IMG/VR virus record: IMGVR_UViG_3300021979_000001
Location: 194,948-258,947 of that record
Direction: 5' to 3' (one strand)
Source of the DNA: a virus
Lineage: Duplodnaviria > Heunggongvirae > Uroviricota > Caudoviricetes
Length of the DNA stretch: 64,000 nt
Below the pieces are notes generated by a model. The model was not told the origin of the DNA and searched no databases. It saw only the letters and a list, made by a program, of their open reading frames with translations. The translations under genes and the position numbers were made by a program. This document shows, piece after piece, positions 2,791 to 6,130 of the stretch. Positions within the stretch are counted from its first letter, which is position 1. Each line of letters opens with the position of its first letter.

Positions 2791-3120
2791 ATGTGTAAAG
2801 ATATTGACATTTGGTTGGAATATACAAAAGAAATAACCCCGATTGCAGATTGTGATCGGTTACATTTGTTGTGCCCGGAACCCAGTCTGACACTATCCCA
2901 TATTGGACATCATTCATATCTTGACTTGCATGGACTTAGTGTGCAGGCCGCATATAAGAAAACCCTGGAATTTATTGATCGTGCCAACCAAAATGGTTTG
3001 AAAAAAGTGACGATCATAACAGGAAAAAGCGGGGCCATTCGAAAAGAGTTTCCCGAATGGTTATCCCGCTATCATGTCACCGATATAAATGGTGGTTCGT
3101 TTTCAGTTAAGATCAGGTAA
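2791..3120 (+). CDS. Smr/MutS2-domain endonuclease
   Basis: LDLHGL...A...FI...VTIITGKSG.IR...PEWL...GGSF Smr signature; N-terminal DIDIW. Confidence 0.88.
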   Translation: MCKDIDIWLEYTKEITPIADCDRLHLLCPEPSLTLSHIGHHSYLDLHGLSVQAAYKKTLEFIDRANQNGLKKVTIITGKSGAIRKEFPEWLSRYHVTDINGGSFSVKIR

Positions 3121-3631
3121 GTTCGAGATTGATGGCATTCAACAGTTTAATGCCTTGCTGTTTGCATCCATCCGCCACCATCTCAACCAAATCATCAACC
3201 AGGATGGTGCAACCCATCTTTTTTGCAACCTTTGCTTTCCAACCCATCAAATCAGCAGCTTGTTGCCACAAATCATCATTGGTTACTTTAGCCAATTCGG
3301 TTGCATAGGTCAGTCGTGTTTCGCCGGGTTCGAGAACAGTCACATCCAGTTCAAACTCAACATTGATATATGCCATATACCAATTGGAGTTTTCCAAATT
3401 GGTTGTTGTTTTGAACACCCCATCAGCATATCCATATTGTGACAGGTAATACGGAATGTCGGCAACCGTATGATTATCCCGAAATGTGATGATGTGATGT
3501 TCCTTTTCTGGATTATCAATGATGTATTGCCGAAATAAAGTTGAATGTGGCCCTTGATGCAAGGTCAAATCAAAGTCCCAGCCGATTACGGCGTGGTTGT
3601 CAAGATGCTGTTTGACCTTTAAAAATGACAT
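3113..3631 (-). CDS. HAD-superfamily hydrolase
   Basis: WDFDLTL motif I, IITFR motif II, ILVDD motif IV. Confidence 0.7.
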   Translation of the reverse strand: MSFLKVKQHLDNHAVIGWDFDLTLHQGPHSTLFRQYIIDNPEKEHHIITFRDNHTVADIPYYLSQYGYADGVFKTTTNLENSNWYMAYINVEFELDVTVLEPGETRLTYATELAKVTNDDLWQQAADLMGWKAKVAKKMGCTILVDDLVEMVADGCKQQGIKLLNAINLELT

Positions 3632-3723
3632 TTTTGATTAACTCCATAAAAACAATTATTGACTTTTACCGAGAAATTGTGAAATTGTCAAATCTTAATT
3701 TAAAATTATGGTATTTACATAAT

Positions 3724-3900
3724 ATGTTCATATGTAACTGTAATGGCATCAACGAACGTAAAATTTCTGAAATGGTATCAAACGGTGCTAAAAAATATTC
3801 AGATGTATTCGCGATGACTGATACCAAACCATGTTGTGGTAAATGTAAACACGACATTAATGCGTGTATAAATAACACGGTTAATGACCACAAAAAATAA
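3724..3900 (+). CDS. bfd: BFD-like [2Fe-2S] ferredoxin (start probably ATG 3724)
   Basis: MFICNCNGI...CCGKC: CxC...CxxC cysteine pattern, 58 aa. Confidence 0.85.
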   Translation: MFICNCNGINERKISEMVSNGAKKYSDVFAMTDTKPCCGKCKHDINACINNTVNDHKK

Positions 3901-3902
3901 TA

Positions 3903-3932
3903 TTGACTGATGATACGATCATCACCTATATT
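3903..3932 (+). promoter_or_regulatory. sigma70-like promoter upstream of the structured element
   Basis: TTGACT-N18-TATATT. Confidence 0.5.
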
Positions 3933-3939
3933 AGTTTTT

Positions 3940-4575
3940 TACATATTGTCCAGGAAGTAATAGGGGCCACTTCCGCCCCAAAGCAAGTCCATCCGGGAGA
4001 TAACAGAGACCGGGGTTTGCATGGCAGGACAGCCCACAAGCCGGATGCATGATCCACATGGTTAAGCCGACCATGGCGAGGTTATGTAAACAGCCGCTTG
4101 CCACACAAAGGATGTGGACGAAGGCACCTTAAAAGAGGATAGTTATGTCTTGAGCATATTTGACATCTATCCACATATGCAACAGTCCACCAATCGCTTT
4201 GCATATGGGCTTGTGAAAACTAAATTTACCATTTTTACATAACCGTTGGACCTACGATACATTTGCCTGTGCAGCAAGGTTGTTTAACCCCGATGCACCG
4301 TTTGATTAGGATGAAATGTGAGGTCGAGATAGGGCTATACTTGTTGGTTACCGGGCAACCGCCAACTATCATCGTAAAGGTGATTAGTAGCTTATTGGTA
4401 GCGGGCTAAATGACTCAGGAAGTTATTTTTAATTCGCTTAATGTCTCTCCCTTGGACTAATTCACCACTATTGCATTCAATTGCTATTAGTGTTTGCGCA
4501 ACAACGATGTTGTGTCTATAATTTGAATTAGTCCAGGGGGGAGAAAGAGCATAACATCTGATCTAGGATGCATGT
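3940..4575 (+). ncRNA. large structured non-coding RNA candidate, class unknown
   Basis: No long ORF; locally GC-richer; more than 10 helices found by eye, including 4035-42/4208-15, 4080-90/4234-44, 4137-49/4162-72, 4174-82/4199-4207 and a 21-bp 4444-64/4524-44; GCAA tetraloop; G-U pairs favour the + strand. Confidence 0.7.
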
Positions 4576-4798
4576 TCTATTTTTTAATAATCACTGTGTT
4601 CATTACGTATTTTTCTTATTGTCTTTTTATTCCTTAAAAATCAACAAGAATGAAATTTACAAGCATATGTGAACGTTAGTGAACAGATGCGCTGTATAAT
4701 TTCTTCTTGTTGCGATAGGGTCTTAATGATTTTTTTCCGCAAGGAAAACAAATCAGAGAGACCCTTCCAGTTAATGTCACTCACGGATAATTACCATA

Positions 4799-5125
4799 AT
4801 GACCAAATACACTTCATTACACGGGAATATGACGATACTTATCGACGAACAAATAATTACAGATGGAATCAATATATTAAATATGATCAATAATATTTCT
4901 GTGTTGTCTTCCTTGAAAGGAATACATGGCCCACATATGATCTATGAAAAAATCATCATTGATGAATTACATGTCGATATAGATGCCACAATGTATTGGC
5001 TAAAGAATTTTGGACTAATCACGCCAGTAATGCAGAAATCAGTTGCGATTACACCAAAAGGAATTAAATCACTTGACTTATCATCATTTCTATCTACAAA
5101 TCATTTAATTCCAGTTAGATCATAG
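4799..5125 (+). CDS. hypothetical protein (possible winged-helix C-terminus)
   Basis: 108 aa; WLKNFGLI...AITPKG resembles a wHTH end. Confidence 0.5.
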   Translation: MTKYTSLHGNMTILIDEQIITDGINILNMINNISVLSSLKGIHGPHMIYEKIIIDELHVDIDATMYWLKNFGLITPVMQKSVAITPKGIKSLDLSSFLSTNHLIPVRS

Positions 5126-5134
5126 GGACATGTC

Positions 5135-5563
5135 ATGAAAAAATACGAATTACTTAACAAAAAAGCACGGTTTGATTATTATCTTCACGATACCTTCGAA
5201 GCAGGGATTATGTTAACCGGGTTTGAAGTAAAAAATATTCGAACCCATAATGTTAGCATTACTGAAAGTCATATCCGTGTGGAAAACGGAGAAGCATGGT
5301 GGGTTAATTCCACTATTGGTCATTCAGTCGTTAATATGTTTGATAAACACGAACCAACTCGTGTTCGAAAATTATTATTGCATAAAAATGAAATTGCAAA
5401 ACTGTATGACGCCGTGAATAAAAAGGGAAATACCATTGTTCCCACCAAACTATATGAAAACAATGGCGTTTTTAAACTGGAAATTGCCATTGCCACTGGT
5501 AAGAAAACCGTGGACAAACGACAAACCATTAAAGAACGTGAATGGAAACGTTCGGGGCATTGA
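5135..5563 (+). CDS. smpB: SsrA-binding protein SmpB
   Basis: NKKARFDY, EAGIMLTGFEVK, RKLLLHK.EI, GKK..DKR motifs. Confidence 0.95.
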   Translation: MKKYELLNKKARFDYYLHDTFEAGIMLTGFEVKNIRTHNVSITESHIRVENGEAWWVNSTIGHSVVNMFDKHEPTRVRKLLLHKNEIAKLYDAVNKKGNTIVPTKLYENNGVFKLEIAIATGKKTVDKRQTIKEREWKRSGH

Positions 5564-5665
5564 TAAAAATACCGATGATTTTTAGTCATCGGTATTTTTA
5601 ATTGGTAATATTAATTTAAATTATGATATATTTTATTTTCCCGTTAAAATATGGTTGTTTATATA

Positions 5666-6130
5666 ATGAATGAAATACTTATTGCTGATTTAGAAACCAA
5701 TGGCATATCACCAAGTGAAATCTATATTGTTGGTGTTCTGAATTATACGACTGATGAATATACACAATATTATCAGTCACTTGATGAAATATCAGTAGGA
5801 TTAATGCGATTAAATGATGCCAGATTAATTATTGGTCATAATTTCATCAAATATGATTCGACTACAATACGTAAGTTAACCGAAGGGGTAATTGATATTC
5901 CTGAAACCAAGATAATCGACACTCTTACCATGTCGAGAAAATTATTCCCGGACATGAAGAAACATTCCCTTGGTGAATGGGGTGATATTTTTGATTATCC
6001 CAAGATCGATTATAAACTTGGTTTTGATCGGTTCCATCCTGAAATGTTACCATACTGTGAGCGGGATTGTCGTTTGAATAAAAGACTATATGATTTCCTA
6101 ATCAGCCAGGAAACCAATAAATTATCGTAA
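5666..6130 (+). CDS. stand-alone PolA-type 3'-5' exonuclease domain
   Basis: ADLETNG (ExoI), GHNFIKYD (ExoII), IDTL..SR, HSL..WG, YCERD (ExoIII). Confidence 0.85.
   Translation: MNEILIADLETNGISPSEIYIVGVLNYTTDEYTQYYQSLDEISVGLMRLNDARLIIGHNFIKYDSTTIRKLTEGVIDIPETKIIDTLTMSRKLFPDMKKHSLGEWGDIFDYPKIDYKLGFDRFHPEMLPYCERDCRLNKRLYDFLISQETNKLS

Follow-up and report, generated by a model that had tools for sequence, protein, structure and literature searches.

A putative family of large, structured non-coding RNA genes carried in several diverged copies by huge phages

The window analysed in this study is a 64,000-nt stretch of DNA (positions 194,948 to 258,947 of IMG/VR virus record IMGVR_UViG_3300021979_000001). 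The record as a whole, referred to here as G000, is a 457,165-bp phage genome that is complete according to CheckV. Close to the start of the window, between a gene for a BFD-like ferredoxin and a 108-amino-acid (aa) open reading frame (ORF), lies an ORF-free tract that begins with a sigma-70-type promoter (Table 1). Window 3903-4569 on the + strand is very probably a self-contained gene for a structured non-coding RNA of about 630 nt, which belongs to a new, uncatalogued family. The RNA spans from about 3940 to at least 4569, with transcription probably starting near 3939-3940.

A preliminary description of the window, made from its letters alone, had proposed a large structured + strand RNA gene of no catalogued class at 3940-4440, and this central inference is upheld by the covariation and the blank Rfam scans reported below. 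The proposed end, and with it the length of 500 nt, fell short: a hairpin at 4444-4544 had been overlooked, and the RNA therefore extends well beyond 4440. Every string quoted in that description was found in place and pairs as it had said. The promoter is present and scores 10/12 in our promoter scan, the longest ORF in the region has at most 57 aa, and the tract is indeed richer in GC than its surroundings (46% against 39% for the window). There is also no conserved ORF within the RNA gene. Folding of the single sequence gave only a weak signal relative to shuffles (+ strand, z -2.0; - strand, z -1.4), and the case for an RNA consequently had to rest on homologues.

Table 1. Features around the RNA gene (window coordinates) and members of the RNA family (coordinates as indicated)
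Feature	Position	Strand	Details
Smr-domain protein, stand-alone	2791-3120	+	
BFD-like ferredoxin, [2Fe-2S]	3625-3900	+	
Sigma-70-type promoter	3903-3932	+	TTGACT-N18-TATATT
5' H-type pseudoknot	3950-3982	+	stem 1 GGAAGU 3953-58/ACUUCC 3969-74; stem 2 GGGGC 3963-67/GCCCC 3975-79
Hairpin H2	3983-4020	+	outer GCAAG/UUUGC, bulged U, inner CCGG/CCGG, loop GA...AGA
Variable region	4021-4120	+	conserved YAGRAC motif, GGUUAUG..CAGCCGC segment, hairpin CCACA/UGUGG
Central domain	4121-4247	+	AAGGCAC, hairpins H4, H5 and H6, invariant AUAACCGUU at 4239-47
Hairpin H4	4137-42/4167-72 and 4145-49/4162-66	+	covariation
Hairpin H5	4174-82/4199-4207	+	covariation; loop with GUCC
Hairpin H6	4212-16/4235-39	+	covariation
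Long-range helix P7	4246-4329	+	GACCU 4249-53/AGGUC 4321-25; closes variable arm
Three-way junction	4333-4392	+	P8 GGCUA 4333-37/UAGCU 4388-92 around H9 and H10
Hairpin H9	4343-66	+	RNAA tetraloop; within three-way junction
Hairpin H10	4368-84	+	GUAAA loop; within three-way junction
Single-stranded motif ACUCAGGA	4413-4420	+	directly 5' of 3' hairpin
Long 3' hairpin	4444-4544	+	21-bp base stem, pyrimidine run (CUCUCCC) against purine run
Tail motif GAUCUAGGAU	4560-4569	+	common to distant members
108-aa ORF	4799-5125	+	no assigned family
SmpB	5135-5563	+	Pfam E 2e-49; ~0.6 kb downstream of RNA
PolB-type 3'-5' exonuclease	5651-6130	+	
Copy A	G000 198.8-199.6 kb	+	the window's locus
Copy B	G000 415.5-416.2 kb	-	blastn, 75% identical, 217 kb from A
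Copy C	G000 305.5-306.1 kb	+	nhmmer profile of A and B
Copy D	G000 126.0-126.6 kb	-	nhmmer profile of A and B
Copy E	G001 (85.8 kb, 62% GC)		pattern scan
Copies F, G, H	metagenome contigs		pattern scan
Copies I, J	G002 (240 kb)		pattern scan
Copies K, L	G004 (415 kb)		pattern scan
Copy M	G005		pattern scan
Copy N	G006		pattern scan

Four diverged copies of the element (A to D) were found in G000, and pattern scans from conserved motifs added ten further members (E to N), giving 14 in all. Outside G000, members occur in four or five huge-phage records and three or four metagenome contigs; a locus in a sixth IMG/VR record (L181) scored equal to copy J, and one on a fourth metagenome contig (L067) is near-identical to copy H. 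The IMG/VR hosts are all phages, with genomes of about 400-580 kb by CheckV completeness estimates. The family spans phage genomes from about 39% to 62% GC, with two to four diverged copies kept by huge phages and single copies in other contigs, and the identity between paralogues is only 51-65%.

A covariance model of the central domain (R1) matched exactly the known copies in G000, G001, G002 and G004 (4, 1, 2 and 2, respectively); it had no further match elsewhere in these four genomes, nor in unrelated loci totalling 624 kb. No match was obtained by blastn for copies A, E and J and a second RNA family (described below) against GenBank phages, or for copies F and H against PLSDB plasmids. 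Scans of IMG/VR with an exact 20-mer and a gapped H2 pattern returned nothing, and a strict pattern gave a single chance match, in a coding region, among 185,579 prokaryote species genomes. The H9 pattern produced 108 matches in metagenomes, mostly chance matches in GC-rich genes. RaK2 (JQ513383) had no R1 match at E<=10, and the H9 motif was absent from it within 2 mismatches. No description of the RNA family was found in literature searches.

Comparison of 9-14 homologues revealed compensatory changes in many helices of the element, and its many G-U pairs assign the fold to the + strand only, as had been proposed. In the central domain, 93.4% of alignment cells are paired, compared with 30-49% when the partners are slid. 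Both sides have changed in 22 of its 27 pairs, none of 500 shuffles did as well, and by our own tally 76 of the 92 changed cells (83%) are still paired. The three-way junction behaves similarly, with 89.8% of cells paired against 25-50% when slid, and with changes on both sides in 4/5 pairs of P8 and 5/5 pairs of H10. P8 takes the place of a long-range GCCGC/GCGGC helix that we had considered and rejected, as P8 covaries in copy A. Between these two domains, helix P7 is found at the same position in at least eight Watson-Crick versions, including GGUC/GACC, GACC/GGUC, GGCA/UGCC, AGCC/GGCU, UGUC/GACA, CGGC/GCCG and GAUC/GAUC; a shuffle test did not discriminate in the case of P7.

Towards the 5' end, the layout of the H-type pseudoknot recurs in 13/14 members, with stems of 4-6 bp, a loop 2 of 0-2 nt and a loop 3 of 0-1 nt, between an upstream YCAG and a downstream AAA. 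The sequences of the two stems differ from member to member, and only 18% of shuffles reached 8 bp. Because the loops are so short, the two stems might not stack classically, and they may also alternate. The neighbouring hairpin H2 is part of the minimum free energy fold, and inspection by eye identified the compensatory versions GUAAG/UUUAC, UCGG/CCGA and CCAG/CUGG in paralogues and homologues. Within the variable region, RNAalifold on 13 sequences returned compensatory changes in the CCACA/UGUGG hairpin (H3b, 4101-05/4113-17), around which it placed a short GCC/GGC helix (4093-95/4123-25).

The 3' hairpin has a predicted free energy of -50.2 kcal/mol (z -8.1), and the equivalent hairpins of copies J, K and E reach z values of -5.3 to -8.0. 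Its purine side contains a G6 run (4536-41) within the tract AGGGGGGAGAAAGAG (4535-49), and the opposed C-run and G-run are retained in all members, whether the genome has 33% or 62% GC. The single-stranded motif before the hairpin is found as RACUCAGGR in 9/14 members. Past the hairpin, copies A, B, J, K, L and N retain AUCUAGGAU, and copy I has it with a single change; as the tail is the last element common to distant members, the RNA or DNA element extends at least to this point. In most members, the motifs RACUCAGGR (4413-4420) and RAUCUAGGR (4560-4569) either side of the hairpin are similar to one another. The first of them reads CAGGAUGU in K, L and N, a type of motif that we take to resemble the CsrA-binding consensus.

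A conserved box, GYGAACG..GUGAGC, was also observed about 100-130 nt past the 3' hairpin (window 4660-4800) in B, C, D, H-L and N. The version in copy A is GTGAAC-N4-GTGAAC at 4669-84, beside a -10 element of the TGTATAAT type. In copies B and C (L002 and L126), the box is followed by long hairpins and by GNRA-capped ones, which covary. The conserved unit may thus reach about 850 nt, or the downstream box may be a separate regulatory module.

Set against this model, the individual helices of the preliminary description fared unevenly. Covariation bears out GGGGC/GCCCC, now stem 2 of the 5' pseudoknot, together with GGATAG..ATGTC/GACAT..CTATCC, the hairpin CATATGCAA/TTGCATATG and ATCATC/GGTGAT (H10), and the GTTGG..CGG-GCAA-CCG..CCAAC hairpin (H9) recurs in the homologues. 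The arm proposed at 4249-4325 survives in its outer helix, GACCT/AGGTC, which covaries as P7; the interior of the arm is variable. Two further hairpins were lost, CATGGTT/GACCATG lying in a segment deleted from paralogue B and GGCGAG/CTTGCC lacking conservation in the homologues. An 8-bp helix (4035-42/4208-15) overlaps the covarying hairpin H6 and could exist at most as a version of 4-6 bp, for which D and M offer some compensatory changes.

The view that the RNA contains several pseudoknots and is as dense in tertiary pairing as a ribozyme is not supported, as both of the pairings offered for it fail in homologues. The first, an 11-bp pseudoknot between 4080-90 and 4234-44, is perfect in copy A only; copy B keeps 9/11 pairs, and elsewhere only the core GGUNAU/AUAACC is left, in which a G-A mismatch recurs. 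The second, a loop pairing GTCCAC/GTGGAC, is weak in B and absent in C. The only conserved pseudoknot is the one formed by 3953-58/3969-74, and this pairing, helix 4333-37/4388-92 and the 3' hairpin were all overlooked in the preliminary description. We also considered the 3' copy of the repeat CAGGAAGU as an alternative partner for the pseudoknot loop; this pairing holds only in A, B and I and does not covary, whereas that with the 5' partner does.

Scanning with cmscan and all 4227 Rfam 15 families (GOLLD, ROOL, OLE, HEARO and raiA among them) left the window blank at the gathering score, and lowering the threshold to E<=10 for positions 3800-4700 gave three chance-level matches only. The whole loci of 11 members of this family and four of the second were likewise blank at the gathering score. 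In agreement with the preliminary description, the hallmarks of transfer-messenger RNA (tmRNA), RNase P RNA and group I/II introns are missing, with no tmRNA called by ARAGORN and no match to the corresponding Rfam models at E<=10. An RNase P RNA had been a candidate through a CR-I-like AAGUCC and a P4-like helix; this was rejected, since AAGUCC pairs locally in a covarying hairpin. Nor does the beginning of the locus suit an intron: a stop codon precedes it, and it starts from a promoter of its own.

In view of the adjoining smpB gene, a tmRNA was considered. At the locus, however, ARAGORN detected no tmRNA in the window, RF00023 gave no match at E<=10 and no tRNA-like domain was found; the frame after an invariant 26-mer, searched for a tag peptide, leads to unrelated peptides of unequal length in copies A and B. 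Instead, ARAGORN placed a two-piece, circularly permuted tmRNA (tag ANDNVASNMAVAA) 38 kb upstream of the window, at G000:C1:160209-160554. The phage SmpB presumably works with that tmRNA, and the RNA locus is therefore not its partner. Rfam RF00023 did not report the permuted tmRNA. The tag suggests an alphaproteobacterial host. ARAGORN also predicted 20 tRNAs in G000.

These results bear on the possibility that the locus belongs to a known RNA class (tmRNA, RNase P, GOLLD or ROOL) from which it has diverged very far, or else an element acting at the level of DNA, such as a single-strand initiation or recombination site. The smpB gene 0.6 kb downstream would suit the former, and the conserved GATC site and repeats have a DNA-like character that would suit the latter. 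We nevertheless consider this pair of explanations the most improbable of those weighed here: the tmRNA is encoded elsewhere, the Rfam models do not match and AAGUCC has a local partner, while a conserved promoter and many G-U pairs, confined to one strand, do not fit a site that acts only as DNA.

No constant protein partner emerged from the neighbourhoods of the copies. The Smr, BFD, SmpB and exonuclease neighbourhood of copy A is not repeated at the other copies, and no relatives of the 108-aa neighbour were found in IMG/VR. Downstream of copy B are two genes for Rz-like spanins, copy D and a lysozyme gene point away from each other, and copy G sits among defence-type genes. A serine recombinase gene lies upstream of copies F and H, in divergent orientation, and H is also near a PolB-type exonuclease. 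The recombinases are of the resolvase/invertase type, about 190 aa long, and lie 0.2-0.7 kb upstream (L030:3434-4003 and L095:6763-7329); they occur on two of the three or four contigs from outside IMG/VR. In the window itself, a second GC-rich island (2200-2640, 49% GC) coincides in part with a - strand ORF of 110 aa, for which Pfam gave no match.

Given this arrangement, one could read the element as a cis-acting leader or processing element for the genes that follow it (the 108-aa ORF, smpB and exonuclease at copy A; the spanins at copy B). The RNA does start right behind a strong promoter, and same-strand genes follow copies A, B and D. However, the genes downstream of copy C are convergent, which rules out a simple leader role, and the downstream genes differ at every copy. 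In addition, no intrinsic terminator follows the 3' hairpin, and copy A has a separate -10 element between the RNA and the next gene. A leader function accordingly seems to us quite improbable.

We attach slightly less credence still to the idea of a selfish, ribozyme-type element, that is, an RNA gene without an ORF that is, or once was, mobile, much like the ORF-less derivatives of group II introns. Such an origin would explain several copies per genome and a spread over unrelated mobile elements, and it would suit the length of about 600 nt, the GNRA hairpin near the 3' end and the presence of multiple copies in huge phages and single ones in contigs beside recombinase or defence-type genes. 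Against it, no group I/II model matched at E<=10, and H9 (5+3 bp), with its bulge on the 5' side, does not have the AGC triad that marks domain V. Target-site duplications are not conserved; around the core, the repeat CAGGAAGU is confined to A and B and is not general. Furthermore, a TTGACN-N18-TANNNT promoter (at least 9/12) precedes 9/14 family members, including most huge-phage copies (against 7.5% of shuffles), and copies that each have their own promoter are not embedded in a host gene.

For the mode of action, the proposal that we favour, at a little under even confidence, is a stand-alone RNA whose fold enables it to act in trans. Early in infection, it would be transcribed by host RNA polymerase. 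Its ends would be capped by the pseudoknot on the 5' side and by the long hairpin on the 3' side, and the latter could serve as an RNase III-type processing site. The mature RNA might then work in trans as a protein scaffold, a ribozyme or a decoy for host machinery, being neither message nor leader. As an explanation of the whole, a structured RNA gene of an uncatalogued family combined with this trans-acting mode has, in our assessment, an even chance of being correct.

Several observations weigh against this proposal. The lone-sequence fold of copy A barely beats shuffles; H9 is nearly invariant and so contributes no covariation, and H10 is just 77% paired in the MAFFT alignment. The low identity between paralogues would be unusual for RNAs sharing one trans-acting job, and position-bound (cis) roles fit it better. 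DNA-like features lie 3' of the hairpin, namely the GATC site and GYGAAC repeats at whole-helical-turn spacing. Lastly, several copies lie at GC-skew turning points, hinting at a role tied to genome position.

This last point leads to the alternative that each copy marks a replication origin and that its RNA is a pre-primer, transcribed by host RNA polymerase, whose 3' purine/G-run would form a persistent RNA-DNA hybrid to be processed to a primer. ColE1 RNA II, T4 oriF/oriG and the mitochondrial CSB II region are models for pre-primers of this kind. The four copies in G000 are close to local minima of cumulative GC skew, three of them at a distance of no more than 0.5 kb and the fourth within 4 kb, with copy B at the global minimum. 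The skew change at these copies falls in the 80th-98th percentile and, for A, C and D, exceeds a crude expectation from gene strand. The conserved G-run and purine tract are followed by a GATC site, an AT-richer stretch and the GYGAAC boxes. The presence of several copies per huge genome also speaks for this reading, and the serine recombinase just upstream of F and H and the PolB-type exonuclease near A and H would be in keeping with it.

Contrary to this pattern, one copy in G004 lies at the global skew maximum and the other near a maximum, and G002 and G001 show no clear link to skew. As the relationship was not reproduced beyond G000, the origin reading is weakened, even if the copies overall tend to sit at skew turning points, i.e. 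block boundaries. The promoter lies about 600 nt upstream of the conserved G5-6 purine tract, and in the free RNA the G-run is locked within a very stable hairpin. Neither an RNase H site nor an initiator gene was identified, and we know of no primer RNA with so elaborate and deeply conserved a fold. Taken together, we regard a role in priming at origins as rather unlikely, well ahead nonetheless of the leader and selfish-element explanations.

A second RNA family without assignment was encountered in the course of this work. Its members are about 470 nt long and well conserved in sequence, and the four loci scanned had no Rfam match. Family-2 loci are L168, L170, L172, L179, L183, L185 and L187; the complete 452.8-kb genome G007 has copies at 15.3-15.8 kb (-), 314.6-315.0 kb (-) and 364.8-365.3 kb (+), and one copy of this sister family lies 224 bp from G007's strongest skew minimum, a point in favour of the origin reading. 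The two families have in common only the H9 hairpin (GCUGGUACCGGGCAACCGCCAGC), the small hairpin that follows it and the C-run/G-run 3' hairpin. A bolder conjecture, to which we give a similarly low probability, is that these unrelated-looking, multi-copy RNAs of 0.5-0.7 kb in huge phages share a position-bound, genome-organising job as origins or domain boundaries. The RNA of each copy would then fold, be processed and hybridise to its template; if true, this would amount to a new way in which phages use RNA to replicate or organise their genomes. Another bold reading is that the family could represent a new ribozyme or RNA-only assembly.

Few large RNAs of bacteria and phages are known whose folds are both complex and deeply conserved, and nearly all such classes studied so far are known to be a ribozyme, a ribonucleoprotein core, a guide RNA or an RNA-only assembly. 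Our findings suggest that huge phages depend on an uncharacterised kind of large RNA, and the covariation-backed model gives a starting point for probing, cryo-electron microscopy (cryo-EM) and genetics.

Of the known systems, tmRNA is likewise a large pseudoknotted RNA, and this locus adjoins smpB. Here, however, there is neither a tRNA-like domain nor a conserved tag frame, and the other three G000 copies are not near smpB. ColE1 RNA II and T4 oriF/oriG resemble the present system in that a host-polymerase promoter is followed by a structured RNA, some 0.55-0.6 kb long and with a G-rich tract at its end; there are several copies per large genome, some of them at skew minima. In contrast to these primers, the fold described here is conserved across distant genomes beyond what we would expect of a primer, and the skew link fails in G004, G002 and G001. 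Further parallels are GOLLD and ROOL, large ornate RNAs of phages and prophages with structures from cryo-EM (bioRxiv 10.1101/2024.12.08.627333). The likeness lies in a size of 500-800 nt, an elaborate fold, carriage by phages and the lack of a tied partner protein gene. Neither Rfam model matches here, however, and the architecture differs; the present family is set apart by its multiple copies, diverged paralogues with promoters of their own, which do not lie next to tRNA genes.

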